Assembly (NCBI GenBank): GCA_019828565.1
Contig: JAHDYR010000019.1
Span: 1 to 55,883 of the forward strand
From: Carpediemonas membranifera BICM
Taxonomy: Eukaryota; Protista; Fornicata
Direction of reading: 5' to 3'
Length of the DNA stretch: 55,883 bases
Shown: one piece after another, positions 1-27,758 of the stretch
Layout of the letters: the number at the start of each line of letters is the position of its first letter
Numbering within the stretch: position 1 is the first letter of the stretch
Translations under genes and position numbers: made by a program
The notes under the pieces: generated by a model
Databases searched by the model: none
Seen by the model: only the letters and a program-made list of their open reading frames with translations
Told to the model about the DNA's origin: nothing

Positions 1-43
1 TGTTAAAATCGTTTTCCGATGCCTGAGGAAATCATGAGGAAGT
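1..43 (+). repeat. Left terminal inverted repeat (partial, noisy)
   Basis: tgttaaaa...cgatgcctgaggaaatcatgaggaagt matches the reverse complement of 13963-14006 and 27710-27753. Confidence 0.75.
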
Positions 44-398
44 CCATTATCGATGGTGAAAACATTAGATTCAGTGAAATCTTTTCACCATTTTCACAAG
101 GCGCGCAAGAAAACGAAAGAGATGGCACTGAACACCCCTGGATGTACAGGACATCACTATACACGACAAGCTTCCATGCATCTGTGAGCTTCTGCATTTT
201 TCACACATTTTCACGAAATGCTTCTCTGCACTGGAGACTACTGTTCGCCAAGCAAGAGAATCACTGAGGTTGTCGATAAATGCTATCCATAAGCTTACTC
301 CCTGTCTTTATTTCCGCTGCTGCTTCCCTCGTAGCGACGCACACAGGTAGCTGTCGCAAAATGCACTTTAAGATTGCATTTCGCACAGCTACCTGTGC

Positions 399-1742
399 AT
401 GGTGTTTCCGAGCTCGATAGTGAGAAGCTGGAGCAACAGACTTCCTCACGTGGTAATAGTAGACGGTATCTGCACGAGTTTGAGCCGACAAGCTGAAGGT
501 CGATCAAGATTGATGAGCACTACGATATGGAGGTTCCCACCCTGCTAGCGCTCAAGGACAGTCCGCATGTCCTCCCTGTCGTCGATACAGGCTTTGTGGT
601 GCATCATGTCCCAGCCTTCTCATGACTCCTCATGTCGACCAAATTGTCGACCTCTTCGTAAGGTTGAGCCCAGCCTTCAGTTCCGCTACGTTTCGCATCT
701 ACTGCAGTCTGTATAGTTTCCATGACTATTAATGAGTTGTTTATTATGATGTTAAGCCCGGACAACTTCTTTCTTTTAGCATTGTGACCAGGAAGCTACT
801 CTCATTGACTTTGGTTCTGCTATGACGGAAGCCGGCTTCGTAGCGACGAGAACTGGGTCATACAACTGAAATCAGCATCCGAATATCGCGGCACGCATGG
901 GTATTTACCCCCAGAGATAAAACACTAAGAGGTCTTCTGCTAAAAGGTTCGGTCATCTGGAAGTTCAAAGAGCGCCATACGAGACCTCCAAGCTCACGCG
1001 AATGACTGCATCGGCTCTTTCCCGCCTGTTCTTATGTCGTCACACCTGCCTCCGACATTTACTTCCGTGCGGTGTAGTCATTATGATGCTCTCTTTTACG
1101 GTCTCCCTAAGCCCTTTGCCGCGAAGGTGACTGACATGGGTGCAAACATGGCAGATCGACAACAAGCAGGAAGAAGAAGAAGATGCTGAAGCTTTTGGTA
1201 GCTTGCTGAACTGCCAATTCTATGTGGTGGGCAGTTGCAGTTGTCACCTCAGGCACAGACATATTTCAAAGATTGCCTCGAGTGTGTCAACGTGAACTCT
1301 TGAGCTCCTGATTCGCGGCACAACGCCACCTTAATTTGCCTCAGCCTGTACGACCTGGCAATGGTGATGCTCCACCGACCCAACAAAGTCCCACCATGCT
1401 GCCGGAATGTCTTGAAAAGCTTCAAGGTCATCATGCGCGTGCATGAATCGCGTCGCCGCGACCAGTCCGCTCCTCCTCTTGGATGATACTGAACAGGTCT
1501 TACTCTCTGTAGATCAGCATGAAAGAGAATGGTCGGACTCGCCGAAGCCAACGGGGTTCTGAGGGTCAAGTCTCTTCTATCGGCGCTTCGCATAGTGCGT
1601 GGTAGGAGACCTTCATGGACGCGAGAACGTCAGCTGTGACACATGCCACAAGGGATACAGGCAGGTGAGCACCAATAAGTGCGCAAAAGGTGTAAGCGGA
1701 AGACTCCACAGGCAGTTTATTGCGATGATTGATCGGAAGTAA
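399..1742 (+). CDS. Ser/Thr protein kinase (copy 1, many indels, probably sequencing errors)
   Basis: Nucleotide match to the intact kinase at 26052-27359. Frames are broken in the low-quality window end. Confidence 0.75.
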
Positions 1743-1813
1743 AGATTATTTGAAAACGTGTAAATTTTGTGTGAAAATTGTGTGAAAAACTGTGGCTAAT
1801 TCTGCACAGAGCG

Positions 1814-2120
1814 ATGCCAAGGACGAAACCAAGGCAGATCAAGAAGAGGCCTCTCAAGATTTAACTGCCCGGCGGTGCAGGTTCGTCAAGTGGCCGGAGA
1901 TGCCGCTTCCAGTAAGGCGTATGCCGTACAGCTCGCCGTATCCATCTCCGTGCCCGTCTCCATCCACCTCTTCGTCGTCAACGCCACTCTGACCCAACCT
2001 GCTCCCACTCAGCCGTCGTCTTCAGCCTCTGCCACGCCCGTTGGCAGTCCGCCTCTTCTCCTGGCCACCATTCTCCACTGAGTCAAGAGTCTCCACTACC
2101 ATGGACTGGATGATGATGTA
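1814..2120 (+). CDS. Small basic/Pro-Ser-rich protein starting MPRTKPRQIKKR (frameshifted here)
   Basis: ATG follows a TGTGAAA-rich upstream region. Second copy at 25673-25980. Reading frame uncertain. Confidence 0.35.
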
Positions 2121-2660
2121 ACACCTGTGGTGGCACAGCATTAAACGATCATCTGATGTGTTTTTGTTACATAATTTTGCGTTGATTGCTTCAAATTGTC
2201 ATGAATTGTCACAAAACAACGGTTCATCGACAGATTCAGCACAATCTCTTTTCTCATTTTCATGCGAGAACGTGAAAGAGATTGTGCTGAAGCAGCTTGA
2301 GGCGCTTAATGTGACCAATCAGGCTCATACAACCATGTTTCAAGCGTTAAGAGTTTCAACAATCTAAACGCAACTTTTTCAATTGAATTGTCCATTTTAT
2401 CAAACATCAGAGTTATGTAGCACAAGCAATAAAGCTTCTTTCGGAGATTTTCGATGCACAAAAACATGTCAGAGACTGTGTCGTCTAGCAAAGAAATGTC
2501 CAATTTGGCTTGAAAATTGTTTTCAAGCGGATCTTTTTGAGACTTTCTTCTATCTTACACACTTCATACATGTTCTTTACTGTTAATTCAGTAACATTGA
2601 TGCCTCCGCGCCGCAGTTCCATTTGGTGAAATTCGCAGTTTATGCGTCAGAATTTCGCGG

Positions 2661-3871
2661 ATGGACATTCCTGTAATACAAGAACCTGCGGCAGCTAAAC
2701 GCGTAACAGGAGATAAAGCCAAGGTATTTCCGGGCCAATCTTTATTCGGCATACCTCAATGCATTTTTTTGACACGACGGTCACCAGCGGCATGGGTCTT
2801 TCCACGGCCGACATGCACCAATGCCTGCGCATTATTCAGGAACGCCTTCTGAAACTGGTCCCAGACATCAAGGGCTATCTGTTCGCCGATAGGACCTCGC
2901 ACGCAGCGATTGCCGCAATCAAGACCTTCCAAAACGACCATTTTGGAACAGAGGAGGTCAATAACGGCGTAGCGCACAGGCTTTGTCTTGCCAGTCAACT
3001 CCTCAGCTCAGTAGCTTCCGCGCTCAGCTCGCTAGCATACCGGAAGGCGATCGACAAGCCTGACGTATCAAATCAAGTTCAGCTTGAGGGCATCACCTGG
3101 CCCACGCTTGTCACTTATCGTCCGCCCAGAGCCAAGAATGATCCTGATCCGTCCGCCGTTCCTCCCATTTCTTCTGGTTCCACCCCCCTCCTCTCGATCA
3201 AGGCCGAGCTACCATCTGCTCGCCAGGAAACGAAGCTATCTCAGATCATGGAGTACGAGATCTCAGACGAGGATGAAGCTCTGGTCACGACTGCTCGCCG
3301 AAGGCTTGAACTTCGTCTGGATGAGGTGGAGACGCAGCCAAAACGAGCCCGACTTGATCCAGAAATGCTTGCTGAGATAGTTTCGGCCGCTGTCATCAAG
3401 CGTATCAGTAATAAGTTCGGCCAGAGTCACACGGAACCCATCTCCGAGTCCGATCAGCCCCCCTCCGACGTACACTCTCTGGCTACTCTCTACCAGAGAT
3501 CGCTGATATATGCCTGCGTCGTGTGCCGTGCTCCCGACTGGTGGTGGAATCCAAATGTCCGCGACTTTGTAACTTGCAGCTCTTGCAAGCGTTTCATGCA
3601 CAAGCATTGCCACAGACCTGGCAAAGCTGGGTCTAAGGTCCAGTGCCCATGCTGCAAGCAGTCGAAGAACCGGTGCGAAGCGTGCACAAGTGATCACAAG
3701 ACTCAGAAGAAGACCAGCGAACTGATGTCATGCTATGCCTGCCTCAAGTGGATGTGCCCGACCCACATAACTGAACTAGAGGCAAGGCTTGATCAAAGAG
3801 TGTTCACGATTCGCCTGTGTAAGATGTGCAGAAGCGTCTATGACGATCATGTGGTCAAAATGAAGTGGTAA
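2661..3871 (+). CDS. PHD-finger plus second Zn-finger protein
   Basis: CVVC-x-CSSC-x-HKHC-x-CPCC gives C4HC3 PHD spacing, followed by CEAC/CYAC/CPTH/CKMC. The 5' part (2661) joins 2759-3871 by an indel absent in the 23941-25147 copy. Confidence 0.75.
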
Positions 3872-3886: not shown

Positions 3887-4938
3887 TTAATGGATCGTGC
3901 GAGTGGCATGTGCGTGTCTCTGCGTCATTTGAGTGATGAACCGCTCATCTAGAACAGTGGAAGGGTTTGTTTCCAGTGGTTTGTAGTCGGTAATGCCGGT
4001 ACAGTGGTCACGAATAGACGGTAGAGGCAGAGAAGATACATACTTGGTCGGACCCAGGATCTGCATCGGCGCATTGCAGCTACTTAATGAGCCATTTGCA
4101 ATCAGCCGTCTCCCAGCAGCCCCCGGCGCGTTGCGGTAGCCTGAGAAGTACCTCGACAGAAACAGCAGGGGGTTGTCCATGCACAGCGTACGATAAATCC
4201 AGAAGCAGTCTTGCAGGTGGAGCTCATTGGCCAGTACCTGCTCTGGAGTGAGGATGATGCAGGTGTGCCTGTACGGTTTCGTCGAAATCGTCTTCATCAG
4301 CTCGGTTGTCTCGGCCGTGTCGTTATCTCTAGTACACGTGGCGAAGTAAATCATACGCACACGTGTTTGATCGACGACTGTAGGCTCCTTGAATGCGGCC
4401 GTGATCAACTCCACAAAGTTGTGGAGGAACAGGGCATCGTTTGTGGCCGCATCAATGACCAAGCGAGAAGTACTAGTCTCCGTATGGCCAGAAATGACCC
4501 AATACGTGTCGAAGTTGGCGTAAAGATCGGCCAGGGTCCTCAATTTGGAAACCAAATCTGCTGTCGAGGAGAACGACACGGCCTCGATTGTGAGGTACTG
4601 GTCACCCATGGTCTCAAGGATCGTCTTGAGCTTGACATGGTACCCTGCCGCGTCTGGCATGTGCTCAAGGTGGAACACGGCGAATGAGTCGCGAGAGGAG
4701 GCGAACCCGTTCTCTGGCTCAAGAACAACGAGCACGCGACGGTTGACAAGGTTGTCCAGAGTGAGCGGGCAGGAGTGGAACCTTGTCAAGCTGTCCGGAG
4801 GGTGATGAGGGAGGATACCAATTCCTCGATAGCCGCGACGCTTGTCTCTTTGCCGCAAACACACTCAAGCACCTTATCAGAGCCTTCTACGGCTCTTACA
4901 GCGTTCTCATTGAACACAAGCGGCAGTTCTTCGCTCAT
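3887..4938 (-). CDS. Putative clan CD (caspase/CHAT-fold) cysteine protease
   Basis: YWVISGH (His after a hydrophobic strand) and RMIYFATC (Cys after a hydrophobic strand) about 50 aa apart. Start MSEELP taken from the intact copy at 22874-23926. Confidence 0.55.
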
Positions 4939-5176: not shown

Positions 5177-5950
5177 ATGGCACGTAGTAAGGCACCAGCT
5201 CATCCCCCGATCGACAGCGACAATTCAAGCGCATCTGCTGATGCTAGCGAGCAGCTTGATGATCCGATGACGCTCCCGCAAAACGTTGTCCATCGAATTT
5301 ACCCAGGTGCCACTGATGAGGAGATATCCGATCTCCGGAAGAAGTGTCACGGCATCACCCGCGTCTATGTGATGCCTGACTGAGCTGCCGGCGGCCGAGT
5401 CTTGCTGCGCTCCCTTCCTCGAGGTCGTTAAGGAGCAACCAGCCCGTGACGCCGAGACTGGGCATGTTGGCAGAGGGATGATGGCTGTCCAGGAGGTCAA
5501 AGAGGGGACCTTCCTCGGCGTCTACTGTGGCCAGCTCCTCTCAGAGGAAGAATACCTCGCCAGCAACACGTCGATGGTGTTTGTTACCCTTTATTTCATT
5601 TACATAGAATCTCCTTTTGGAACAAGGTGCGTGTGGACTCCACTGAGCTATCCTACGCCAGTGGAGTCCACCTGATCAATCACAGCGATGACTATAACTG
5701 TGTATGCAGCGAGGGCGTGCTCTGCGGCCTCCCTGTTCTTGGTGTGTATGCCAATAAGCGCATCGAGAAGGATGAGTTCCTTCGCATTGACTATCAGGAG
5801 GACTACTGGAAGGATTCGGAGGTCAAGAAAGTCGAAGTGGCTCACTTTCGGGCCCTCGAAATGACTGACAAGCGGTACATCTCCAACTTGAAGAGGATGT
5901 ATCCCAGTTTACGTCAACCTCAGCGCGCGGGAATTAAGAAGAAGAAGTAA
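5177..5950 (+). CDS. SET-domain lysine methyltransferase
   Basis: GRGMMA..GTFLGVYCG, HLINHSDDYNC, IEKDEFLRIDY motifs. Probable intron 5579-5607. The stop at 5381 is an indel absent in copy 2. Confidence 0.85.
5579..5607 (+). other. Putative 29-nt spliceosomal intron in SET gene
   Basis: AT-rich GTTTG...CATAG. Removal gives in-frame SMVISFWNKVRVDS joining the two SET halves. Confidence 0.55.
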
Positions 5951-5978: not shown

Positions 5979-7583
5979 TTAGAGTTTCTCCGAAGTCGTC
6001 GCACGGGCCTTGCTCTTACCATCGCGACGTAGGAATATATGCATAGGAGTAACATCGGCAGGAGATGAGTGCTCCTTGCTGCTCATATCTGGCGGCAGGT
6101 CGACCGCCGGAGAGTGCTGGTTGATGATAGCCTTCATCTCTGGCGACAGACCGAGGTCGAGGGGTGGGACCGTTATGAACTTCTGGCCCCCGTACCTCAT
6201 CATGGTGCTATTGATCCGAGTCCATAAGGCTCCAGTCACATTGTTCCTCTGGAACAGTACCATCAAGGCAGCGAGAGGAACGTAGCGGTCAAGCTCCACT
6301 GTTGCCTCCTCGGCGCGCCTGACAAGCTCAGCCCAGTTGTCCTCGAGTTCATCGGCGAGCGCTTCAAGCCCAGCCTCACTCGCCCGTGCCAACTCTTCTT
6401 GAGTAAACTGATGGATCGCCTGATCCTCGGCCTTCTGCTGACCTAACTCAGCTTCAAGTCTCTTCTGGGACTCCTCAGAATCTCTGTTAGCCTGTTCAAG
6501 CGCCTCCCTCGCCTCCCTCTCCTCAGCAAGCCGTTTCATCAAGGGCTCGTACTGCTCCAACAAGCGCACAGACTCGGGTACATCATCAAGGCCTGCACTG
6601 GTGTCGTCTAGCTGCTGAAGGAGAGAACCAACGGTGTCTGTGTCGTCCACATCGGACTCTACGTCGACGTCTTGATCAGTCTGGGGCAACGGAACGCCGT
6701 CACCATGCATGGCGGCCGGTTCAGAGTGGCCATCGGACTCGGACTCGTCAGTGTCGGAAAATTCCACGGCGTCGCTGGCGGGTGGTGTCACATAGGCATG
6801 CCCTGTATCTTGCGCATAGGATGCAGTAACGAGTTCAAGCGAGTGTATGGCTTCCTCGCGGTCATTCCTTGCCTGAATAGCTTCGGCGGCTGCCTTGGCA
6901 ACATCTCGACGCAACCGCTCAAGCTGGGCTGATGTCACATCGCTTCCCGGATCATTCTTGCAACCAGAAAGAATGTCCTCGTAGGGGGCATGCACGCGGC
7001 GGGCCTCGACAGTGCCCTCAGGGGCGACGAAGAGAGCGCGAAGGATCAGGTTGACTTGATCTGGAAGAAAGAGACGGCCTGTTCCTTCTAGATGAATAGA
7101 GCCACGATGTGACGGCATGACAGCCTCGCGGTTATCCTCAAAGGTGATCGCTGATCCGGTGTAGTGGTCAACAAACTGCTTCCGCACGATTTCAACCTGA
7201 TCATCCTCCATAAACAAGCCTGCAGGAACCTTAGACAGCTCGGGCCGGGCAAGGTCGTCACTAATGGCCATGAGCTCGGGAAGGGAAGCCTTGTTGATGA
7301 GATCCATTAGTGAAACTCGGCCAGCGAGACCAAACACATCACGAATCTCGTCAATGACGATGTGGTCGACCAGCGCGCATCTCAGGGCTGTCTTCGTTAT
7401 CACGTTGTGCTCCTTGAGGTACTCCAATCGGCTCTTATTCGTCCGGAGTGCGAACCATCTCTCGAACATACTCTTATCTGCTCGAATAGCCTTACGCTCT
7501 TGACCAGGTGCAGCAAAAGCAATCCTAACGGTCTTCTCATGATGCTCACGAATCCAGCTGCGTAGAATAGTGATATCTAGCAT
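5979..7583 (-). CDS. Acidic coiled-coil protein, unknown function
   Basis: Long ORF with E/A/R-rich heptads. C-terminal half nearly identical to 20495-21832. Confidence 0.7.
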   Translation of the reverse strand: MLDITILRSWIREHHEKTVRIAFAAPGQERKAIRADKSMFERWFALRTNKSRLEYLKEHNVITKTALRCALVDHIVIDEIRDVFGLAGRVSLMDLINKASLPELMAISDDLARPELSKVPAGLFMEDDQVEIVRKQFVDHYTGSAITFEDNREAVMPSHRGSIHLEGTGRLFLPDQVNLILRALFVAPEGTVEARRVHAPYEDILSGCKNDPGSDVTSAQLERLRRDVAKAAAEAIQARNDREEAIHSLELVTASYAQDTGHAYVTPPASDAVEFSDTDESESDGHSEPAAMHGDGVPLPQTDQDVDVESDVDDTDTVGSLLQQLDDTSAGLDDVPESVRLLEQYEPLMKRLAEEREAREALEQANRDSEESQKRLEAELGQQKAEDQAIHQFTQEELARASEAGLEALADELEDNWAELVRRAEEATVELDRYVPLAALMVLFQRNNVTGALWTRINSTMMRYGGQKFITVPPLDLGLSPEMKAIINQHSPAVDLPPDMSSKEHSSPADVTPMHIFLRRDGKSKARATTSEKL

Positions 7584-8550: not shown

Positions 8551-9306
8551 ATGGCAAGGAGTAATCCGAAGGCAAGAGTGCCGAAAAGGCCTAACGCGCA
8601 GAGAAGGAAGCTTGGTGCTCGCAACCAGAAGCAGTTGAACTTGTCGAAGAAGCAGCGCAAGATCACTATGGCTGCATTGGACCTTGTCCAATCCTTCATC
8701 AACTCTCTCGAGGATCCGGGCGAGATTGAGAGGGCAAACAAGATCGTGACGGAGGCAAACAACCTGGGGCGCGACCAGGACGTCCGTGACCTGAATCCCA
8801 CGTCAGCCCGCGACAACAACGATTACAGGCACGCCACCGTGAGGGATATTGAGGCGGCCTACACCGGAGATGGCGATAATGGCACCCTGAAGCGTTTTGC
8901 GGCTCTGGTCAGCCTCGACGGCGACGACGAAGACGAGCTTCGCCCTGATGACCCCCTCATGGCCTGCGTTAAGTCGCACAGGGATCTTTTCCTCAAGATT
9001 CCCGCTGGCCTGAGGGAGGAGGTGCACCAGTTCGTGTCTTCTCAGCTCGACATCCCCACGGAGACGATCCGGCACATCCTCCATGCCAACACCCAGTCCT
9101 CCGACGCCACTGAGATCTTCAAGCGACCCACACTGGTCCCGAAGAGGTCCTATTCTTCCGTGGAGGAGCTCGGTGATATCATTGTCGCGCAGAACCGGAA
9201 GCGTGTGGAGGCGGAGCGGCGCGATGCCATACGTCGCAAGATCTACGAGACGATCATGATGTTCTACATGATCCAGTCTACTAAGCAGACCCCAGAGACT
9301 GATTAA
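8551..9306 (+). CDS. Hypothetical protein with basic N-terminus (MARSNPKARVPKR)
   Basis: 251-aa ORF, GC3-rich, preceded by TTTCAC motifs, ends in TAAA. Confidence 0.7.
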   Translation: MARSNPKARVPKRPNAQRRKLGARNQKQLNLSKKQRKITMAALDLVQSFINSLEDPGEIERANKIVTEANNLGRDQDVRDLNPTSARDNNDYRHATVRDIEAAYTGDGDNGTLKRFAALVSLDGDDEDELRPDDPLMACVKSHRDLFLKIPAGLREEVHQFVSSQLDIPTETIRHILHANTQSSDATEIFKRPTLVPKRSYSSVEELGDIIVAQNRKRVEAERRDAIRRKIYETIMMFYMIQSTKQTPETD

Positions 9307-9321: not shown

Positions 9322-10300
9322 TTACTCATACTCAATATTCCACGCGGCTTCCCAGTAGTTATCTTTCTTGCGATCTGCGTGCGATCTGTAGTAAGACCGG
9401 AGAGCAGCCATCTTGATAACGAAGACGAGGTGACCCTCCTCGATATGCTTGAGGATCATCTTCCGCTGGGTGCTTCTCGTGGTGTTTGTGGACTTTTGCT
9501 TGCTCGCCTCCTTGATCGACTTGAGCTTCTTCTTCATTGCCATCGTCAAGTCATCCTCCGTCTGAGTCAGTGTGATGTACTCGTTCGGGCTTTCGGGCAT
9601 GGGGTGGGTTGGGGCGGGTTGTCGGCGAGATGAGGCAGGATCATTGGAAGGCTGGGGTGGGGAAATGAGGTGCCGCAAGCCCTGACGACGCCGATAAGCG
9701 TCACCCGCGCTGTGGAGAAATGTGGTGATCTCCCTCACACACCCAACACAGTCGGCAAGAGACTGACCCAAAGCCTCCCACTTGGTGCCAGAGAGCGCTG
9801 CCTCCAACGTGTAGCTCGGGCTGGAGGTATCCTCGATAGACTCCAATTCCGCTGCAGGTAGCGATGTCACGAATCCAAGCTCCTTGTAGAACTCCAGGAC
9901 AGTCTCATCACACTGGAGCCTGAGCTTGGCGCCGGCAGACGCAACAGCGAGCAGGATTGACGCATATCCCTTGCCTCGGTGGGCCACCTTCGTGCCAAGA
10001 GTAACGACGTACTTACTCTTGAAGTTCGGCACACCCGAAATGCCCTCCTGTACCATGAGCAGCATAGAGACGATGTCGTTGGTGGTGGTGCTGACAATGG
10101 CGATCATGCTATGTAAGAGCTTGGGGTGGGTCATACAGGGTGTTGTTCAGTTCAATGGCACTGAGCATTTCCGTAACATGAAATGACGACAGGAAGGACA
10201 GTACGCTGTGCACATACTGGCTGTTGTCGTCCAGTAGTACATATACTAGGTGACAACCATCCATGGCCAATATCGTGTTCTTCCAGTCGTCGTTAGGCAT
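9322..10300 (-). CDS. GNAT-family acetyltransferase
   Basis: Motif A VVTLGTKVAHRGKGYAS and FYKELGF. ORF 10109-10300 is probably its N-terminus, offset by one frameshift. Confidence 0.75.
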
Positions 10301-16420: not shown

Positions 16421-18975
16421 TTACTCATACTTGCCACAGATGCACACATCCAGTGAGATCTCTCCTTCCTCATGGACATCGATGTCTAACCATTGCCCGT
16501 CAAACACGAGCCCTACCTGCCTCAACACCTTCTTCCATAGACCATCCACTTGACCTTCAAACAGAGGTAACAGTTTCTGACAGTCTCCCTCGTCCAATGT
16601 TCCAGTGCCCTCGCTCCGAATACGGATCCAGTGTTTGGCGTCCTTGCAGCAGCGATGAACGCGCATTGTCTTCAGACGTATTTGGTGGGGAACGTCTGTT
16701 GACTGTCGCCCATACGAGACGACGCCACGGAGGAATCGGTAAAACAACTCGACCTGCTCCTTCAATATCGTTCTCTCAAGGACCATCTGGTTGCGCCTTA
16801 AGTGTACTCTACTTTCCTGATTGCCAATAAAGTCGCGCTCGAATGACTCCTCAATAATCCGGCCAAGTGGGACTCGGATTTTTGACTGAATCTCCGGCAA
16901 CACAGCAACTCGCGCTAAGCCATGAAGTGTGTCGATGGAGGGAGCCTTCTTGGCTACCTTAGACGGCGGCCGGATTGGAATAGACTCCGACACGGTGCTG
17001 GTCGTGCTCAGACACATTGTCAGTGAAAAGAGGTGAACAAGCAACGCTGTCAGTCGATGCCAGGTGATAATGTCATCTGTGGCCTCCTCGTGAGAGTAAT
17101 AATGCTCTTGCAGGTAGGCAACGAGTCTGAAAAGTGGCTGAACGGGGGAGGGAATGCCATGTAGAGACCGTTTCCAATTGACGCGATCATCTTCCTCCCC
17201 TTCACTTGCTCATTACAGCCAGTCGTGCGACTGGGAGGTTCAAACTTAGCCAGCCTGGCGAGGTCAGCGTTTCTGGCCTTCTTGGTCTTGATTTCCTCCG
17301 GGGTAGAGTCTGGGTCGACCTCAATTGGCTTGAACATCCGACAAATGTTGTGTATCAAGGAGACGAAGTCATGACTGAGGTGCATGATCGGCGGGACAAG
17401 GAAGATTTTGCCCCTATCGAGAGTTGGGTCATCCGAGTTCTCGAATAGGCTGGGCATGATGCACTTATTCTTCTTGTTGTAGAACGACCCCCACTTCTTC
17501 TCTCTATCCAGGACTGTCTTGTCCTCAACAGACATCTTCTTCGCATACATCACGTCTGCAATCGTGTTTCGTGGGGTGAGACCGAATGGGCTCCAGGCCT
17601 TGTTGTCAGCATGTACCGAGCTGAATGGAGAGGGATAGCTGCCGCCAATCAAGGTTCCACAGACTTTTGACATCGCTGGGTGGTCTGCGATGAACATAAC
17701 GCGAGTGACACGGCACAGGAGACCGGTATTTCTCACCTCAAGTGACTCGCGATGGGTACTCTCGACTGAGCGCTCGATGAAGTCGAAGAATTCTCCAATG
17801 CGCTTCTCTGGTCCGTTGTACTCGAGTATGCGGAAGGGTGGTGTTCCGCCTGACGGGAAGACTTTGCCGGAGACATCGATAAACCGAACCTTCACAGATG
17901 TAGTCAACCCTCGCCATCCATCGACCCAGACGAGAAGATCAAGCGGCACTGTCTGAGTCTCTTCAGCTTGAGTCTGCGCTGTCAACTGCTTGCCCACGTT
18001 CTTACGAGCAGCCCTTGACCTCTCGAGATCGATAGGCGAAGCCACCGCCTGGCGATAGTACCGCATGAGGTCAAACTCAGCGTGTTGCACATGGGAATAC
18101 CTGCCGCTAGACTGGAGACGCGGGTTGAGACCGGCTCTCTTCATCACGTCATTATGTGCAGTTCGCTTCATTGCCGATTCGTAGAAGATGCACACCGTCG
18201 TACCTCTGAGCACTTCAGTGTTATAGTCGTCGCCGTCGAATGTAGCGTTGACTTGTTCGAGGTCTGCGTCGACGTGGGTAATCAGGTCGAGGTCATACTC
18301 GCGGTGATCCTTGTCCGTCCTCTTTGCTCGTGTCTCTTGAGTGATCGCCATGGGTATGTAGCCCTTTAGGGCCTTTTTCAAGTTCCTATGCGACTTGACA
18401 ATGGTCTCAACGTCTGCGATGTTCCGAATGCTGCACTGAAGCGACTTGACTTGGTTTGTGACCTGATTGATGTTGATAATGTCAAGGTTGAGTCTCTGTG
18501 CAAGGGCTTGCATGATGTGAATCTCGTCATTGACTGCATTCACGCCGATCGTGATGGCCCTGAGCTCGTTGGACACCTGCAGAAGACGTTCAGTGTCAGC
18601 AATACGCTTACGTAGACGAGCATTCTCTGCCTCGAGGCCGAAGCTATCAGAATGCAGAACATATGCACCAACGTAAAGGTGACTGGGACCAGAGCGGTGT
18701 GCCTTCTTCTCCTTTGAGATGCTAGTGGATGATGGCGCTGGGTAGAGATTGCTAGAAATAGCCTCACGCGATACAGCGCCGATATTGATTAGTTCCTGCG
18801 CGATGCGGGCTAGCTCGAGCCTTTGCTGGTGTTTGGAGGTATCAAATCCGTTAATACGGCGATCCACTGCGTCAATCGAGAGCCAGACGCTGCAAAGGAT
18901 GGTATTGATGTCATCAGTGCCCTCCGGAGCATAGATAGATCCGTTAGACAGTTTCCACTTCAGTTGAAGCGCCAT
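16421..18975 (-). CDS. Transib/RAG1/Chapaev-like DDE transposase (unit 2), one frameshift
   Basis: VWVDG, FIADHPAM..YPSPFS, PPIMH, TTGCNEQ, IEESFERDF. A shift near the G-run at ~17145 restores QPLFRLVAYLQEHYY, which aligns with unit 1. Confidence 0.6.
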
Positions 18976-19040: not shown

Positions 19041-20276
19041 ATGCCAGCCACGGAACTAGAGATGAAGCGTGGAAATGAAGGAACTACTCCGGACACCCGA
19101 GAGACGAACTCTCAGAAACGCAAGCCGATGGTCAGGTGGAATGACGCCGCAAAGAGCGAATGCAGGTCGGCTCTCATGATTGGTATGCTCAAGGCATTCT
19201 TTTGCATCACCGTTGATGTGTTTGGAACGGATATGACTGGTCTATCTGTCCGTAAGGTGGCGAATGCCTACAATCACATCATCTCGGTGTACTTGCAGCC
19301 CTGCCACCCTGATCCGACATTCTTTGATGGTATCAAGTCCCTCACGGCTGTATCGCAGGGTAGGCTTGTCATTGGGCATGTTAAGGAGTGGGCAACCCAG
19401 TCTTGCCACTGCAACATCGGCATTTCTGATCAGGCTCCTTCGAGAGTGTTTCATAACCTTTCTCGGGCCCCCAACCCGGTGCGATCGGAGCTTCTGACCG
19501 CGATGAAGAAGATTTTCACGAGAGTTGGCCTGGACGTCCCCCAGAATTTTGATTCGCGTCCTCTGTCCCTTAATCTGGTGGACCTTTCGGCACCCGACAT
19601 ATTTACTGGTCGGACGAAGACGTTTTTCAAGACAGCAGAAATCCCCCATTCCGTGCCGCAAGTGAAGCAGGAGGTGAAGGTTGACCCCGTTCGACCCTCT
19701 GAGTCTATCTCTAAGCGTAACGTCATGCTACTCGATGACGTCCATCGCATGACACAGCGCATGTCGGAAGATCTCTCTCAGCTCAAAGAACGGCCGGTAA
19801 CCGCTGATTCAGACTCTGACGATGATGGAGAGAACCTCCTTGACTTGCAGAAGAGGATGCTTGCCTTCTGTTGCGGCCATTGCCACAGCTTGGACTGGGT
19901 TGGCAATCTCAACACGTCAAAGTTTGTCTCGTGTGGAGAGTGCGGCAGGAACTTTCATGACAATTCCGTTTGCGTGCCTGCTCGTCCGGAGAAATGTTCA
20001 AAGACTGCCAACTGGACGAAAGAAGCCAACAGAAAGAAGTCCTCGTGGAAGTTCACATGCCAGGCTTGTGTCCAGGAGAAGACTTGTTTCGCATGCCAGA
20101 AGAACGCCTCGGTATATCATTGTCGGATGTGTGGGCACTGGTTCTGTGGTAACAAGGGCTGTATGGGCACCACTGCCGTGAAGGTCGTCATTGACGGCGT
20201 GAATATTCCCAAGATCCGTCTTTGTGACGATTGCCTTGAGAACTTCAAGTCGGTGGTTCAACAGTCGGAGCAGTAA
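19041..20276 (+). CDS. PHD-like plus second Zn-finger protein (paralogue of 2661-3871)
   Basis: CGHC..CGEC..H..C..CQAC then CFAC/CRMC/C..C/CDDC. Same architecture and shared DW..N..FV.C pattern. Confidence 0.75.
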   Translation: MPATELEMKRGNEGTTPDTRETNSQKRKPMVRWNDAAKSECRSALMIGMLKAFFCITVDVFGTDMTGLSVRKVANAYNHIISVYLQPCHPDPTFFDGIKSLTAVSQGRLVIGHVKEWATQSCHCNIGISDQAPSRVFHNLSRAPNPVRSELLTAMKKIFTRVGLDVPQNFDSRPLSLNLVDLSAPDIFTGRTKTFFKTAEIPHSVPQVKQEVKVDPVRPSESISKRNVMLLDDVHRMTQRMSEDLSQLKERPVTADSDSDDDGENLLDLQKRMLAFCCGHCHSLDWVGNLNTSKFVSCGECGRNFHDNSVCVPARPEKCSKTANWTKEANRKKSSWKFTCQACVQEKTCFACQKNASVYHCRMCGHWFCGNKGCMGTTAVKVVIDGVNIPKIRLCDDCLENFKSVVQQSEQ

Positions 20277-20494
20277 AGATACAATTGAATCTTTTCAACC
20301 ATATTTTCATGAAGATAGATCCAATGAAACTATGTACCATGAGCCCGATTGCTCAGTGATTATGTGATAATCCTGTGTGACCCAGGACAGCGTGCTCCTG
20401 GAATCAACAGGGCACAAAACACCCTGCGTATTCCGGTAGCACACCGTTCTGACTCATACGTCCGTCTCTGGTTGTCGTATACAGGTCTATTTAC

Positions 20495-21832
20495 GTGTTT
20501 GGCGATGGCGCTCCCTTAAATCTGCTTGAACGGCGTGTCGTGGCTGTCTGCGAGGTCGACTTTGACTCTCCCGACACAATTGAGGCATTCCGACGGAAGT
20601 TTTGTGACCACTTCACCGCCAAATCTGTTCATAAGGCTCTAGTCGGCGTCGACTCGCTCCCTGTTGAGAAGCAGGTTGAGATTTACCGCGCATTCCACCT
20701 TGTGTTGCGCCACAAGGACTCGAAGAAACTCGATTCTCGTGTTCCGGCAGGCCAATTTGGCCAGTTTATCGCCCACGCCCAGCTCAGCAAGAAGCTGTCC
20801 TTCGCTGGCTCAGAGAAGCTGACCGAGGAGTTGGCTAAGATCGGTTCGCTCGATCCGTCAGCTCCTCTGAAGAGGAAGATCGCTCGTCTTGAGAAGGAGC
20901 TCGCCTCATCGACTGCTGCTCTGATGAAGGTCCAAGAGGAGTTAGTCCGGGCCCAGAACCACTCAGCAGCAGCCACCAAGCCTTCTGCCGTCGTTGCTGC
21001 CCCTCAGCCGCTTCCGGTTGTCGACGCAGAGTCCACGACACACGATGAATTTTCCGACACTGACGAGTCCGAGTCCGATGGCCACTCTGAACCGGCCGCC
21101 ATGCAGGGTGACGGCGTTCCTTTGCCCCAGTCTGATCAAGACGTCGACGTAGAGTCCGATGTGGACGACACAGACACCGTTGGTTCTCTCCTTCAGCAGC
21201 TAGACGACACCAGTGCAGGCCTTGATGATGTACCCGAGTCTGTGCGCTTGTTGGAGCAGTACGAGCCCTTGATGAAACGGCTTGCTGAGGAGCGGGAGGC
21301 GAGGGAGGCGCTTGAACAGGCTAACAGAGATTCTGAGGAGTCCCAGAAGAGACTTGAAGCTGAGTTAGGTCAGCAGAAGGCCGAGGATCAGGCGATCCAT
21401 CAGTTTACTCAAGCAGAGTTGGCACGGGCGAGTGAGGCTGGGCTTGAAGCGCTCGCCGATGAACTCGAGGACAACTGGGCTGAGCTTGTCAGGCGCGCCG
21501 AGGAGGCAACAGTGGAGCTTGACCGCTACGTTCCTCTCGCTGCCTTGATGGTACTGTTCCAGAGGAACAATGTGACTGGAGCCTTATGGACTCGGATCAA
21601 TAGCACCATGATGAGGTACGGGGGCCAGAAGTTCATAACGGTCCCACCCCTCGACCTCGGTCTGTCGCCAGAGATGAAGGCTATCATCAACCAGCACTCT
21701 CCGGCGGTCGACCTGCCGCCAGATATGAGCAGCAAGGAGCACTCATCTCCTGCCGATGTTACTCCTATGCATATATTCCTACGTCGCGATGGTAAGAGCA
21801 AGGCCCGTGCGACGACTTCGGAGAAACTCTAA
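20495..21832 (+). CDS. Acidic coiled-coil protein with alternative N-terminus
   Basis: Near-identical to 5979-7583 from EFSDTDESES onward. True start may lie upstream. Confidence 0.7.
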   Translation: MFGDGAPLNLLERRVVAVCEVDFDSPDTIEAFRRKFCDHFTAKSVHKALVGVDSLPVEKQVEIYRAFHLVLRHKDSKKLDSRVPAGQFGQFIAHAQLSKKLSFAGSEKLTEELAKIGSLDPSAPLKRKIARLEKELASSTAALMKVQEELVRAQNHSAAATKPSAVVAAPQPLPVVDAESTTHDEFSDTDESESDGHSEPAAMQGDGVPLPQSDQDVDVESDVDDTDTVGSLLQQLDDTSAGLDDVPESVRLLEQYEPLMKRLAEEREAREALEQANRDSEESQKRLEAELGQQKAEDQAIHQFTQAELARASEAGLEALADELEDNWAELVRRAEEATVELDRYVPLAALMVLFQRNNVTGALWTRINSTMMRYGGQKFITVPPLDLGLSPEMKAIINQHSPAVDLPPDMSSKEHSSPADVTPMHIFLRRDGKSKARATTSEKL

Positions 21833-21860: not shown

Positions 21861-22635
21861 TTACTTCTTCTTCTTAATTCCCGCGCGCTGAGGTTGACGT
21901 AAACTGGGATACATCCTCTTCAAGTTGGAGATGTACCGCTTGTCAGTCATTTCGAGGGCCCGAAAGTGAGCCACTTCGACTTTCTTGACCTCCGAATCCT
22001 TCCAGTAGTCCTCCTGATAGTCAATGCGAAGGAACTCATCCTTCTCGATGCGCTTATTGGCATACACACCAAGAACAGGGAGGCCGCAGAGCACGCCCTC
22101 GCTGCATACACAGTTATAGTCATCGCTGTGATTGATCAGGTGGACTCCACTGGCGTAGGATAGCTCAGTGGAGTCCACACGCACCTTGTTCCAAAAAGGA
22201 GATTCTATGTAAAATGAAATAAAGGGTAACAAACACCATCGACGTGTTGCTGGCGAGGTATTCTTCCTCTGAGAGGAGCTGGCCACAGTAGACGCCGAGG
22301 AAGGTCCCCTCTTTGACCTCCTGGACAGCCATCATCCCTCTGCCAACATGCCCAGTCTCGGCGTCACGGGCTGGTTGCTCCTTAACGACCTCGAGGAAGG
22401 GAGCGCAGCAAGACTCGGCCGCCGGCAGCCAGTCAGGCATCACATAGACGCGGGTGATGCCGTGACACTTCTTCCGGAGATCGGATATCTCCTCATCAGT
22501 GGCACCTGGGTAAATTCGATGGACAACGTTTTGCGGGAGCGTCATCGGATCATCAAGCTGCTCGCTAGCATCAGCAGATGCGCTTGAATTGTCGCTGTCG
22601 ATCGGGGGATGAGCTGGTGCCTTACTACGTGCCAT
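21861..22635 (-). CDS. SET-domain lysine methyltransferase (copy 2)
   Basis: Same motifs. Split at the same AT-rich GT..AG segment. Confidence 0.85.
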
Positions 22636-22873
22636 TGAAGTCCTCTCGTTATGCGAAAAAGCCAATTTTCGCAAAAACATCTTGTGAAAATATCGCGAAA
22701 GTTTCTGAAACACTGCTAAACGCCTATTGCTGACGTACACATGAATGGGAATGGATTTATGCAAAGATGAAACAACATATTCCAGGTTTTTATAGGCCAA
22801 AACTTCAGCTATCAGGCCGTACTGTGCTTGTGCCAATATTTTTTTCATGGTGGCACATTCTGAAATTTGTGAA

Positions 22874-23926
22874 ATGAGCGAAGAACTGCCGCTTGTGTTC
22901 AATGAGAACGCTGTAAGAGCCGTAGAAGGCTCTGATAAGGTGCTTGAGTGTGTTTGCGGCAAAAGAGACAAGCGTCGCGGCTATCGAGGAATTGGTATCC
23001 TCCCTCATCACCCTCCGGACAGCTTGACAAGGTTCCACTCCTGCCCGCTCACTCTGGACAACCTTGTCAACCGTCGCGTGCTCGTTGTTCTTGAGCCAGA
23101 GAACGGGTTCGCCTCCTCTCGCGACTCATTCGCCGTGTTCCACCTTGAGCACATGCCAGACGCGGCAGGGTACCATGTCAAGCTCAAGACGATCCTTGAG
23201 ACCATGGGTGACCAGTACCTCACAATCGAGGCCGTGTCGTTCTCCTCGACAGCAGATTTGGTTTCCAAATTGAGGACCCTGGCCGATCTTTACGCCAACT
23301 TCGACACGTATTGGGTCATTTCTGGCCATACGGAGACTAGTACTTCTCGCTTGGTCATTGATGCGGCCACAAACGATGCCCTGTTCCTCCACAACTTTGT
23401 GGAGTTGATCACGGCCGCATTCAAGGAGCCTACAGTCGTCGATCAAACACGTGTGCGTATGATTTACTTCGCCACGTGTACTAGAGATAACGACACGGCC
23501 GAGACAACCGAGCTGATGAAGACGATTTCGACGAAACCGTACAGGCACACCTGCATCATCCTCACTCCAGAGCAGGTACTGGCCAATGAGCTCCACCTGC
23601 AAGACTGCTTCTGGATTTATCGTACGCTGTGCATGGACAACCCCCTGCTGTTTCTGTCGAGGTACTTCTCAGGCTACCGCAACGCGCCGGGGGCTGCTGG
23701 GAGACGGCTGATTGCAAATGGCTCATTAAGTAGCTGCAATGCGCCGATGCAGATCCTGGGTCCGACCAAGTATGTATCTTCTCTGCCTCTACCGTCTATT
23801 CGTGACCACTGTACCGGCATTACCGACTACAAACCACTGGAAACAAACCCTTCCACTGTTCTAGATGAGCGGTTCATCACTCAAATGACGCAGAGACACG
23901 CACATGCCACTCGCACGATCCATTAA
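22874..23926 (+). CDS. Putative clan CD cysteine protease (copy 2, intact)
   Basis: VISGH and IYFATC motifs. Confidence 0.55.
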   Translation: MSEELPLVFNENAVRAVEGSDKVLECVCGKRDKRRGYRGIGILPHHPPDSLTRFHSCPLTLDNLVNRRVLVVLEPENGFASSRDSFAVFHLEHMPDAAGYHVKLKTILETMGDQYLTIEAVSFSSTADLVSKLRTLADLYANFDTYWVISGHTETSTSRLVIDAATNDALFLHNFVELITAAFKEPTVVDQTRVRMIYFATCTRDNDTAETTELMKTISTKPYRHTCIILTPEQVLANELHLQDCFWIYRTLCMDNPLLFLSRYFSGYRNAPGAAGRRLIANGSLSSCNAPMQILGPTKYVSSLPLPSIRDHCTGITDYKPLETNPSTVLDERFITQMTQRHAHATRTIH

Positions 23927-23940: not shown

Positions 23941-25147
23941 TTACCACTTCATTTTGACCACATGATCGTCATAGACGCTTCTGCACATCTTACACAGGCG
24001 AATCGTGAACACTCTTTGATCAAGCCTTGCCTCTAGTTCAGTTATGTGGGTCGGGCACATCCACTTGAGGCAGGCATAGCATGACATCAGTTCGCTGGTC
24101 TTCTTCTGAGTCTTGTGATCACTTGTGCACGCTTCGCACCGGTTCTTCGACTGCTTGCAGCATGGGCACTGGACCTTAGACCCAGCTTTGCCAGGTCTGT
24201 GGCAATGCTTGTGCATGAAAACGCTTGCAAGAGCTGCAAGTTACAAAGTCGCGGACATTTGGATTCCACCACCAGTCGGGAGCACGGCACACGACGCAGG
24301 CATATACCAGCGATCTCTGGTAGAGAGTAGCCAGAGAGTGTACGTCGGAGGGGGGCTGATCGGACTCGGAGATGGGTTCCGTGTGACTCTGGCCGAACTT
24401 ATTACTGATACGCTTGATGACAGCGGCCGAAACTATCTCAGCAAGCATTTCTGGATCAAGTCGGGCTCGTTTGGCCGCGGTCTCCACCTCATCCAGACGA
24501 AGTTCAAGCCTTCGGCGAGCAGTCGTGACCAGAGCTTCATCCTCGTCTGAGATCTCGTACTCCATGATCTGAGATAGCTTCGTTTCCTGGCGAGCAGATG
24601 GTAGCTCGGCCTTGATCGAGAGGAGGGGGGTGGAACCAGAAGAAATGGGAGGAACGGCGGACGGATCAGGATCATTCTTGGCTCTGGGCGGACGATAAGT
24701 GACAAGCGTGGGCCAGGTGATGCCCTCAAGCTGAACTTGATTTGATACGTCAGGCTTGTCGATCGCCTTCAGTATGCTAGCGAGCTGAGCGCGGAAGCTA
24801 CTGAGCTGAGGTTGACTGGCAAGACAAAGCCTGTGCGCTACGCCGTTATTTACCTCCTCTGTTCCAAAATGGTCGTTTTGGAAGGTCTTGATTGCGGCAA
24901 TCGCTGCGTGCGAGGTCCTATCGGCGAACAGATAGCCCTTGATGTCTGGGACCAGTTTCAGAAGGCGTTCCTGAATAATGCGCAGGCATTGGTGCATGTC
25001 GGCCGTGGAAAGACCCATGCCGCTGGTGACCGTCGTGTCAAAAAATGCATTGAGGTATGCCGAATAAAGATTGGCCCGGAAATACCTTGGCTTATCTCCT
25101 GTTACGCGTTTAGCTGCCGCAGGTTCTTGTATTACAGGAATGTCCAT
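23941..25147 (-). CDS. PHD-finger protein (copy 2, one indel near 24218)
   Basis: Inverted copy of 2661-3871. Confidence 0.75.
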
Positions 25148-25672
25148 CCGCGAAATTCTGACATAAACTGCGAATTTCACCAAATGGAACTGCGGCGCGG
25201 AGGCATCAATGTTACTGAATTAACAGTAAAGAACATGTATAAAGTGTGTAAGATAGAAGAAAGTCTCAAAAAGATCCGCGAAAACAATTTTCAAGCCAAA
25301 TTGGACATTTCTATAGACGACACAGTCTCTGACATGTTTTTGGCCATCGAAAATCTCCGAAAGAAGCTTGTGCTTGTGCTACATAACTCTGATGTTTGAT
25401 AAATGGACAATTCAATTGAAAAAAGTTGCGTTTAGATTGTTGAAACTCTTAACGCTTGAAACATGGTTGTATGAGCCTGATTGGTCACATTAAGCGCCTC
25501 AAGCTGCTTCAGCACAATCTCTTTCACGTTCTCGCATGAAAATGAGAAAGAGATTGTGCTGAATCTGTGTTGAACCGTTGTTTTGTGACAATTCATGACA
25601 ATTTGAAGCAATCAACGCAAAATTATGTAACAAAAACACATCAGATGATCGTTTAATGCTGTACCACAGGTG

Positions 25673-25980
25673 TTACATCATCATCTGATCCATGGTAGTG
25701 GAGACTCTTGACTCAGTGGAGAATGGTGGCCAGGAGAAGAAGGCGGACTGCCAACGGGCGTGGCAGAGGCTGAAGACGACGGCTGAGTGGGAGCAGGTTG
25801 GGTGGGGGGTGGCGTTGACGACGAAGAGGTGGATGGAGACGGGCACGGAGATGGATACGGCGAGCTGTACGGCATACGCCTTACTGGAAGCGGCATCTCC
25901 GGCCACTTGACGAACCTGCACCGCCGGGCAGTTAAATCTTGAGGCCTCTTCTTGATCTGCCTTGGTTTCGTCCTTGGCAT
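25673..25980 (-). CDS. Small protein starting MPRTKPRQIKKR (copy 2)
   Basis: Inverted copy of 1814-2120. Confidence 0.35.
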
Positions 25981-26051
25981 CGCTCTGTGCAGAATTAGCC
26001 ACAGTTTTTCACACAATTTTCACACAAAATTTACACGTTTTCAAATAATCT

Positions 26052-27359
26052 TTACTTCCGATCAATCATCGCAATAAACTGCCTGTGGAGTCTTCCGCTT
26101 ACACCTTTTGCGCACTTATTGGTGCTCACCTGCCTGTATCCCTTGTGGCATGTGTCACAGCTGACGTTCTCGCGTCCATGAAGGTCTCTACCACACACTA
26201 TGCAGCGCCGATAGAAGACTTGACCCTCAAACCCCCGTTGGCAGCAGTCGACCATTCTCTTTCGCTGATCTACAGAGAGTAAGACCTGTTCAGTATCATC
26301 CAAGAGGAGCGGACTGGTCTTGGCGACGCATTCATGCACGCGCATGATGACCTTGAGCTTTTCAAGACATTCGGCAGCAGTGGGACGCTTCGTTGGGTCG
26401 AAGTGGAGCATCTGCATTGCCAGGTCGTACATTCCGAGGCAAGTGGGTGGCGTGGTGCCGCGAATCGGTAGTGCAGAGTTCACGTTCACGAAGTTGAGAC
26501 AATCTCTGAGCGGTTCGAGTGTCTTACGTGACAACTGCAACTGCCCACCATAGAAGTGGCACCAGTTCAGCAAGCTACCAAGCTTCAGCATCTTCTTCTT
26601 CTTCCTGTTGTCGATCTGCGCCATGTTTGCACCCATGTCAGTCACCTTCGCGGCAAAGGGGGACTTGGGGAGACCGTAAAAGAGCATCAAAATGACTACA
26701 CCGCACGAGTAAATGTCGGAGGCAGGTGTGACGACATAAGAACAGGCGGGAAGAGCCGATGCAGTCATTCGCGTGAGCTTGGAGGTCTCGTATGGCGCTC
26801 TTTGAACTTCCGGAATGACCGAACGCGCAGCGAGACACTCTTTGAACATCTCTGGGGGTAAATACCCATGCGTGCCGCGATATTCGGATGCTGATTTCAG
26901 TTGTATGACCCAGTTCTCGTCGCTACAAGCCGGCTTCGTCATAGCAGAACCAAAGTCAATGAGGTATCCCTTCTGGTCTGTGCTAAAAAGAAAGTTGTCG
27001 GGCTTAATATCGCAATGAGCAACTCCGTGGTCATGCATGAAGCATACAGACTGCAGTAGATGCGAAACGTAGCGGAACTGAAGGCTGGGCTCAGCCTTAC
27101 AGAGGTCGACGAAGAAGATTTGGTCGACATGAGGAGTCATGAAGGCTGGGACATGGTCTACAAAGCCTGTATCGACGACAGGGAGGACATGCGGACTGTC
27201 CTTGAGCGCTAGCAGGGTGGGAACCTCCATATCGTAGTGCTCATCAATCTTGATCACGACCTTCAGCTTGTCAGCTCCAAACTCGTGCAGATACCGTCTA
27301 CTATTACCACGTGAGGAAGTCTGTTGCTCCAGCTTCTCACTATCGAGCTCGAACACCAT
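26052..27359 (-). CDS. Ser/Thr protein kinase with C-terminal CxxC..CxxC
   Basis: HCDIKPDNFL, DFG, GTHGYLPPE, SDIYSCG. Intact 435 aa. Confidence 0.92.
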   Translation of the reverse strand: MVFELDSEKLEQQTSSRGNSRRYLHEFGADKLKVVIKIDEHYDMEVPTLLALKDSPHVLPVVDTGFVDHVPAFMTPHVDQIFFVDLCKAEPSLQFRYVSHLLQSVCFMHDHGVAHCDIKPDNFLFSTDQKGYLIDFGSAMTKPACSDENWVIQLKSASEYRGTHGYLPPEMFKECLAARSVIPEVQRAPYETSKLTRMTASALPACSYVVTPASDIYSCGVVILMLFYGLPKSPFAAKVTDMGANMAQIDNRKKKKMLKLGSLLNWCHFYGGQLQLSRKTLEPLRDCLNFVNVNSALPIRGTTPPTCLGMYDLAMQMLHFDPTKRPTAAECLEKLKVIMRVHECVAKTSPLLLDDTEQVLLSVDQRKRMVDCCQRGFEGQVFYRRCIVCGRDLHGRENVSCDTCHKGYRQVSTNKCAKGVSGRLHRQFIAMIDRK

Positions 27360-27709
27360 GCACAGGTAGCTGTGCGAAATTCGGTCTTAAAGTGCATTTT
27401 GCGACAGCTACCTGTGCGTCGCTACGAGGGAAGCAGCAGCGGAAATAAAGACAGGAGTAGCTTATGGATAGCATTTATCGACAACCTCAGTGATTCTCTT
27501 GGCGAACAGTAGTCTCAGTGCAGAGAAGCATTTCGTGAAAATGTGTGAAAAATGCAGAAGCTCACAGATGCATGGAAAGCATGTATAGTGATGTCCTGTA
27601 CATCCAGGGGTGTTCAGTGCCATCTCTTTCGTTTTCTTGCGCCTTGTGAAAATGGTGAAAAGATTTCACTGAATCTAATGTTTTCACCATTTTTTTTTCG
27701 TGAAAACGG

Positions 27710-27758
27710 ACTTCCTCATGATTTCCTCAGGCATCGAAACCCCGTTTTTAACAGTATG
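27710..27758 (+). repeat. 49-bp terminal repeat
   Basis: Identical to 13963-14011. Outer end reads 5'-CATACTG on the minus strand. Confidence 0.9.

Follow-up and report, generated by a model that had tools for sequence, protein, structure and literature searches.

We analyzed a 55,883-nt stretch of the genome of the fornicate protist Carpediemonas membranifera BICM (contig JAHDYR010000019.1, positions 1 to 55,883; the window), which begins with a candidate DNA transposon, unit X (1-14011, 14 kb), followed by a second, partly related unit (14012-27758). Unit X is flanked by inverted 49-bp repeats and contains, between them, genes for a kinase, the zinc-finger protein PHD1, a caspase-like protein, a SET-domain protein, a coiled-coil protein, the open reading frame (ORF) ORF251, a GNAT-like acetyltransferase and the transposase T1, followed by 900 bp of non-coding DNA. 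The published genome (69 contigs, 8,300 proteins) derives from Nanopore plus Illumina reads (PMC8516963), so single-base indels in the window may be sequencing errors. The string 'transpos' is absent from the main text of that paper. The features of unit X are as follows.

1..43, minus strand: left terminal inverted repeat of X (89% identical to 13963-14006, inverted; clipped by about 5 bases)
271..1745, plus strand: kinase region, X type, with many small indels disrupting the frame (inverted copy of 26049-27483)
2759..3871, plus strand: PHD1, likely PHD-like plus FYVE-like zinc-finger protein (Pfam PHD, E 0.037)
3887..4660, minus strand: likely caspase-like alpha/beta protein (copy 1), with the frame lost in its 5' part
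5177..5950, plus strand: SET-domain gene, copy 1, start likely at Met-Ala-Arg-Ser-Lys (Pfam, base composition)
5979..7583, minus strand: CC1, acidic protein of 534 aa, probably coiled-coil (composition)
8551..9306, plus strand: ORF251, protein of 251 aa with a basic N-terminus (annotated protein, single-member cluster)
9322..10134, minus strand: likely GNAT-like acetyltransferase (Pfam Acetyltransf_7, E 3.6e-4; PDB 4m85, E 0.035)
10511..13051, minus strand: transposase T1, intact, predicted triad D348-D429-E712
13575..13687, no strand: imperfect palindrome with 55-bp arms in the non-coding right end of X (palindrome scan)
13963..14011, plus strand: right terminal inverted repeat of X, 49 bp (exact match to 27710-27758)

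The 49-bp terminal repeats reported in an earlier note on this DNA were borne out. The copies at 13963-14011 and 27710-27758 are identical and diverge abruptly into flanks that are unrelated on either side, and a third, noisy copy lies at 1-43. Because this last copy is inverted, the ends at 1/14011 and 1/27758 form inverted pairs and those at 14011/27758 a direct pair. Imperfect palindromes with 26-55-bp arms occur in several non-coding stretches (8036-8198, 13575-13687, 25508-25563 and 28331-28466). Just beyond the right-hand repeat, the 9 bases at 27759-27767 echo its last 7 bases, perhaps as a relic end or a target preference.

Read inward, the repeat starts with CATACTG, giving 5'-CA..TG-3' termini as in the CMCT clade. 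This one sequence was scored against the consensus heptamer and nonamer of Transib (PMC1131882) and matched them at 5/7 and 6/9 bases, respectively, at a spacing of exactly 23 bp (11/16 in all). That score is reached by 25 of the 57,302 positions in 1-28700, the repeats themselves included (111 with six spacings), corresponding to about 1 in 500-2300 by chance, and in 0.03% of shuffles. A heptamer-23-nonamer layout at the X terminus is suggestive on the basis of this single sequence. The third terminal base departs from the CAC start conserved in all 21 Transib families (PMC1131882), being CAT instead. Four metagenome loci that fitted a 19-base pattern of the repeat were discarded as chance matches: of 30 further bases they agreed at 5-11, and they showed no likeness at the protein level.

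Transposase T1 and its family

T1 is 846 aa long from its ATG and 866 aa from stop to stop. An AlphaFold2 model of residues 278-846, built from a 37-row alignment, reached a predicted local distance difference test score (pLDDT) of 91 and a predicted template modelling score of 0.91. Foldseek returned 47 matches for this model at E<=0.001, and all 34 of the matches listed were RAG1, BbRAG1L or HzTransib; the P element came next after these structures (E 0.03). The VIA comparison ranked RAG1 first (Z 13.1, root-mean-square deviation 6.8, 392 aligned), then the P element (Z 12.8, deviation 4.6, 292 aligned), RAG1L (Z 11.9), Transib (8.9) and ISCth4 (7.0), with 5.1 thereafter. T1 is predicted from this model to have an RNase H/RAG1-type fold; the RNase H fold, which had been named beforehand as a test of the transposase claim, is present in the predicted structure. 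Wherever a row of the alignment has a residue, D348, D429 and H534 (34/34 each) and E712 (28/28) are invariant, and D348, D429 and E712 are predicted from their position and the fold to form the catalytic triad.

The zinc ligands Cys-x2-Cys and His-x3/4-His, common to the CMCT clade and RAG1 (Kojima, PMC12730594), are missing from the interval that runs from the second D to the E in T1, in all close relatives, and in T2, the transposase of the second unit (27% and 31% identical to T1 in two frame-shifted pieces). Each motif is found in 3 of the 37 rows, all distant family members, and P0044 carries both. Because its terminus is CAT and the zinc ligands are lost, the T1 element is not a member of Transib or RAGL. 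Pfam scans of the ORFs revealed no kelch family that would indicate a RAG2-like gene (four ORFs were not folded). The label RAG1/Transib-like given in the earlier note holds for the predicted fold and is not supported for membership. The best reading is that T1 represents a derived, zinc-less lineage of the CMCT/RAG1 clade outside every named superfamily. Loss of a supposedly clade-defining zinc site would bear on the origin of RAG and Transib.

A profile search of 1.84 billion representatives identified 47 proteins at E<=0.001, including 18 at <=1e-30. A profile built from 14 distant members only recovers T1 (E 4e-21, residues 261-778) and not reversed T1, which argues that the wide family is real. 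Neither T1 nor the family profiles gave anything significant against PDB sequences, Pfam has no transposase family for the sets of 38 and 37 family proteins (and none matched Plavaka or Transposase_21), and a viral structure library gave no match to T1 at E<=0.001. The range of RAG1-fold transposases would then take in a metamonad and at least 40 unannotated proteins that escape recognition by Pfam. About 25 of the proteins found (P0040-P0067, up to 1,448 aa) share the same motifs and form a wider Pfam-dark DDE (Asp-Asp-Glu) family; P0008, which appeared in the transposase cluster listing, was dropped for lack of similarity to the family.

In C. membranifera itself, 23 named family genes of several subfamilies are found on 15 contigs besides that of the window, which bears out, at the protein level, the dispersed copies anticipated in the earlier note. 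Copies within subfamilies are 98.8-100% identical, suggesting that the X family was recently mobile. The hypothetical protein J8273_5138 of this species is 99.8% identical to the first 558 residues of T1. Family members from further assemblies (P0004, P0013, P0028-P0031, P0034) are interspersed through the transposase tree, and no related loci were found in metagenome or viral contigs. We regard a large, recently active DNA transposon family with a RAG1-type fold as very probable, and active elements may exist, several subfamilies having multiplied recently.

Accessory genes and the recombinant second unit

The kinase and SET identities are firm at the sequence level, and the PHD plus FYVE-like, GNAT and caspase-like ones are likely. 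The kinases of X and of the second unit match Pfam Pkinase (E 8e-24 and 1e-20) with visible catalytic motifs, in agreement with the earlier note. Their ratio of nonsynonymous to synonymous substitution is 0.39 (codons 1-225, p 3e-6). The two SET copies score 30.6 and 30.3 bits against a Pfam cut-off of 22.4, so that the SET assignment of the earlier note stands, with the qualification that the gene is split in both. Each copy is broken at an AT-rich patch and copy 1 has one further indel; GT-AG introns of 29-52 bases (5 candidates per copy) would restore the frame, and the break is likely a short intron.

The other three activities of the earlier note are likely rather than established. The GNAT match lies under its Pfam cut-off; a copy 99.6% identical (J8273_5137) lies beside a transposase copy on another contig. 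PHD1 combines a Cys4-His-Cys3 finger with a FYVE-like finger (Vps27 FYVE match, E 7e-4 with a profile), and the cysteine pattern is common to four paralogues. Its PHD finger lacks the Trp that is usual in the aromatic cage. A caspase fold is likely for the caspase-like protein, in which His and Cys motifs are kept in 4/4 rows and follow caspase strands 3 and 4 in a low-confidence model. That model is poor (pLDDT 45), Foldseek ties a SAVED-CHAT protease with an alpha/beta hydrolase, VIA is undiscriminating, and among 10 Atlas structure rows 5 belong to C11, C14 or CHAT, each below the naming bar, with DUF6642 as the top row. A 93% piece of this gene is fused behind a HEPN-like domain on another contig (P0074, J8273_6694). 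No family was found for CC1 or ORF251 in Pfam and PHROG scans.

The start of the SET gene was placed at 22635 in copy 2, where GC content rises from 0.38 to 0.58 and the N-terminus reads Met-Ala-Arg-Ser-Lys; ORF251 begins Met-Ala-Arg-Ser-Asn-Pro-Lys-Ala-Arg. The N-termini of SET (22635, minus strand; 5177, plus strand) and ORF251 (8551, plus strand) resemble the tail of histone H3. In 4,937 residues, chance would supply about 0.1 four-letter words of this kind; two occur, each at a probable start, a likeness noticed post hoc; among 83 proteins checked, ORF251 alone starts with one.

Linkage between cargo and transposases was assessed for 21 named cargo proteins (16 caspase-like, 4 PHD and 1 GNAT), with distance measured by accession number and with the window's own proteins, P0074 and a numberless copy in the cluster of P0071 excluded. 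Six of the 21 lie within 10 accession numbers of a family transposase (1.1 expected). After collapsing to 18 clusters, six lie within 7 (0.75 expected, p 1.5e-4), under a null that assumes the accession span and ignores clustering of repeats. The six closest pairs have contigs of the same length. A cargo neighbour was found for 7 of the 13 transposases in the T1/T2 clade (support 100/99; J8273_8991 was placed in it separately) and for none of the 10 outside. Exact look-ups of the kinases and CC1 at other loci gave no match. It is probable that the cargo is kept as functional accessory genes in one clade.

The earlier note had rested its conserved gene set on a diverged sister unit. The second unit has the following features.

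14009..14497, plus strand: acidic ORF of 162 aa, whose start lies within the final 3 bases of the repeat (ORF call)
14662..15957, plus strand: Ser/Thr-type kinase, Y type, with C-terminal Cys fingers, 3' half apparently homogenised to X type (Pfam)
16421..18975, minus strand: transposase T2, one frame break near 17150 (58-66% to J8273_8438/8658)
19041..20276, plus strand: PHD2, likely PHD-like plus FYVE-like protein (homology, cysteine pattern)
20453..21832, plus strand: chimeric coiled-coil gene, Y-type 5' and X-type 3' part, junction at about 21047 (sequence comparison)
21861..22635, minus strand: SET-domain gene, copy 2 (Pfam)
22847..23926, plus strand: likely caspase-like protein, copy 2, intact, with Ser-Gly-His and Tyr-Phe-Ala-Thr-Cys motifs
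23941..25147, minus strand: PHD1, copy 2, one frame break near 24219
26052..27359, minus strand: kinase, X type, intact (Pfam)
27710..27758, plus strand: terminal repeat, left end of the second, inverted X arm (exact 49-bp match)

Half of this unit is not diverged at all, because 1-6764 is an inverted 96% copy of 21047-27753; the copy contains many errors over its first 1.5 kb (85-89% of columns match in 1-1500 against the right end of the second unit) and 99-100% identical from 3 kb onward. The diverged relative, Y, is confined to 14012-21046 and consists of the acidic ORF, a kinase, T2, PHD2 and the 5' part of a coiled-coil gene, which is joined in frame to the X-type 3' part at about 21047; the 5' parts of the X and Y coiled-coil genes show faint homology. 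By sequence comparison, 14012-27758 is a chimera of Y with the inverted left arm of X, which probably arose by recombination inside the shared coiled-coil gene. Per 100 bp, identity between the kinases of Y and X is 75-91% as far as 15337 and 96-100% at 15338-15937, which suggests that gene conversion homogenised the 3' half of the Y kinase with the X type. Y has no end of its own of this repeat type here, since no further 12-base piece of the 49-bp repeat occurs elsewhere in the window, and the 162-aa ORF at 14009, for which an exact look-up of the sequence gave no match, is possibly a gene cut by insertion of X.

The sister unit thus survives as paralogues of the transposase, kinase, PHD and coiled-coil genes, and it is weakened as independent evidence for a conserved cargo because it is a recombinant. 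The conserved gene set draws its support instead from the cargo near family transposases at other loci. A fold-back artefact was rejected as the source of the 6.8-kb inverted repeat, the 14-kb middle not being palindromic, and 1-27758 was rejected as one native element, given the internal terminal repeat and the chimeric gene in its middle; it could nevertheless move as a composite.

Proposed mechanism and competing explanations

Our preferred explanation, to which we give somewhat better than even credence, is that X is a likely autonomous cut-and-paste transposon of the RAG1 fold with kept accessory genes acting on chromatin, and that 14012-27758 is a likely recombinant. A T1 dimer would bind the heptamer-like terminus and the nonamer-like motif 23 bp inside and excise the unit. 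The SET, GNAT and kinase proteins may place marks on the tails of histones or on proteins of the element itself, and PHD may read them, with the effect of keeping the element expressed or steering its insertion. Recombination of Y with the inverted left arm of X would have taken place within the coiled-coil gene that both carry. If the cargo is functional, we consider its action on chromatin about an even prospect or slightly better, histone modification and anti-silencing being its putative forms. X offers four purifiable enzymes for testing whether a transposon rewrites histone marks.

Several observations weigh against this explanation. For the transposase, the P element ties RAG1 on VIA, and Atlas lists Plavaka, CACTA and RAG1 clusters at an equally weak score (0.90-0.91) after uncharacterised clusters. 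For mobility, the left flank of X lies outside the window, making a target-site duplication unreadable, and the other copies are known at the protein level. For the cargo, linkage derives from accession numbers rather than DNA and covers caspase-like, PHD and GNAT proteins only. The kinase, whose glycine loop is degenerate, falls into no clear subfamily, SET matches in PDB are all at E>0.1 (KMT2D, chlorovirus vSET, SETD8), the GNAT match is sub-threshold, as given above, and a caspase-like protease has no obvious chromatin role. Finally, of the 16 caspase-like genes, 7 are separated by more than 50 accession numbers from every family transposase, and the J8273_6817 subfamily amplified without any of the three cargo types searched for in its vicinity, so that cargo is not needed by all relatives.

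These last two points also fit the view that the transposon is the same and its cargo a loose, exchangeable set of accessories that regulate the transposase or signalling in the cell (by phosphorylation, proteolysis or membrane traffic) and not chromatin. The second finger of PHD1, being FYVE-like, has a membrane-type fold, gene order differs between X and Y, and in TBE elements a kinase/zinc-finger cargo is carried without known function (PMC4724952), all in line with such a set. We consider it doubtful, since SET, GNAT, kinase and PHD all occur in one unit, the cargo tracks one transposase clade, and two cargo proteins start with the H3-tail-like Ala-Arg-Ser (a post hoc observation). In the opposite direction, it can be speculated, as a rather unlikely extension of the preferred explanation, that T1 marks a zinc-less RAG1-fold lineage of superfamily rank with ends like recombination signal sequences, in which one clade carries an H3-tail kit (kinase, SET and GNAT as writers, PHD as reader, a caspase-like protease, and SET and ORF251 as H3-tail mimics) against host silencing or for gating transposition.

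It is improbable that X is not a transposon bounded by repeats and that the 49-mer is a promoter or a recombination relic, the pattern stemming from segmental duplication or mis-assembly. The repeat does end in the ATG of the 162-aa ORF at 14009, the first 1.5 kb of the window are error-rich, its neighbourhood consists of retroelement arrays, and no target duplication is seen; but at the other two repeat copies the ATG opens no useful frame, an intact DDE gene is enclosed by inward-facing repeats with Transib-like motif spacing, and near-identical transposases occur on many contigs. Least probable is that X is what remains of an endogenous DNA virus or of a Polinton-like element integrating by this transposase: large viruses can have SET, kinase and protease genes, the genes are dense, mostly intronless and on two strands, 6.8-kb inverted arms surround 1-27758 and four ORFs have no assignment, but recombination in a single gene accounts for the long arms, the viral structures and contigs gave no transposase match or relative, as described above, and Pfam and PHROG scans of the ORFs (the four unassigned ones unfolded) found no capsid, polymerase (protein-primed included), packaging ATPase, retroviral-type integrase or other viral family.

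Beyond the element, 28708-38865 and 43403-55883 are occupied by opposed tandem arrays of ~3.45-kb retroelement units of the non-long-terminal-repeat kind. The two types, A and B (64% protein identity; copies 98-99.6% identical), share a 155-bp 5' end and are ordered A-B-B on the plus strand and A-B-A-B on the minus strand; these units look as if they insert site-specifically into each other. A tRNA-Thr(AGT) gene (43197-43269), the only tRNA found in the window by Rfam and ARAGORN, lies outside the element, ~20-130 bases from the end of the right-hand array, and tRNA-adjacent targeting by the retroelements is possible. A DIRS-like fragment at 38866-40893 (RNase H, E 0.0016; tyrosine recombinase, E 0.002) breaks the 3' end of a retroelement copy.

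Comparison with known systems

Transib, RAGL and RAG1 are the closest systems, providing the best structural matches of T1; the heptamer-like and nonamer-like motifs 23 bp apart would be a further, suggestive likeness. RAGL is known from a unicellular alga, and Transib-like proteins occur across eukaryotes and bacteria (Tao et al., PMC9435367). X differs from them in its CAT terminus, in the missing Cys-x2-Cys and His-x3/4-His of T1 and in the lack of a sequence-level match. A long distance from the second D to the E is common to all of them (283 aa in T1, 253 in RAG1 and 206-214 in Transib; PMC1131882), and X, at 14 kb with about eight genes, is far larger than an autonomous Transib (3-4 kb).

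With respect to size and cargo, X resembles two groups of large DDE elements that carry several genes, among them accessory ones whose products modify chromatin or DNA. The first is the giant red-algal Plavaka (EnSpm/CMCT), whose modifying accessory genes include SET; a SET/adenine-methylase gene is present in the 17-19-kb Plavaka, and SET genes are found in HarbingerS and Helitrons as well (bioRxiv 10.1101/2025.02.11.637652). PlavakaB termini likewise begin with CAT (PMC12730594), and T1 is weakly alike in Atlas. The second comprises the fungal CMCT elements that carry TET/JBP, a gene type carried by eleven lineages of fungal DNA transposons. The cargo itself differs, being a kinase, GNAT, stand-alone SET, PHD/FYVE and a caspase-like protein in X and an adenine methylase, ParB and a 2-oxoglutarate oxygenase in the Plavaka and fungal CMCT elements. 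EnSpm families of 16-20 kb with 4-5 ORFs are known (PMC6431247), and transposon genes frequently occur as fusions with chromatin domains, PHD and SET among them (bioRxiv 10.1101/2021.11.30.470311).

Three further systems share single traits with X. TBE of Oxytricha is also a protist DNA transposon with a kinase/zinc-finger gene, there under purifying selection (PMC4724952), but it has a Tc1/mariner transposase, three genes and a role in programmed rearrangement. The P element, besides its tie on VIA, has CA..TG termini as X does, whereas its Foldseek match is weaker and its alignment shorter, and distant members of the T1 family keep the CMCT Cys-x2-Cys. VANDAL elements, which are Mutator-like, reportedly encode their own anti-silencing; they have a transposase of another superfamily, and VANC acts on DNA methylation, a gene type absent from X.

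The suggestion in the earlier note of a possibly undescribed class is not supported, with SET-carrying Plavaka, TET-carrying fungal and kinase-carrying TBE elements already in print. In the literature covered (Repbase, subscription journals and supplements lying outside that scope), we found no description of the X family or of its cargo combination. Because large CMCT-type transposons with SET or TET genes have been described, X is a new variant rather than a new class, one whose cargo joins more protein-modifying activities than the accessory genes of that literature.

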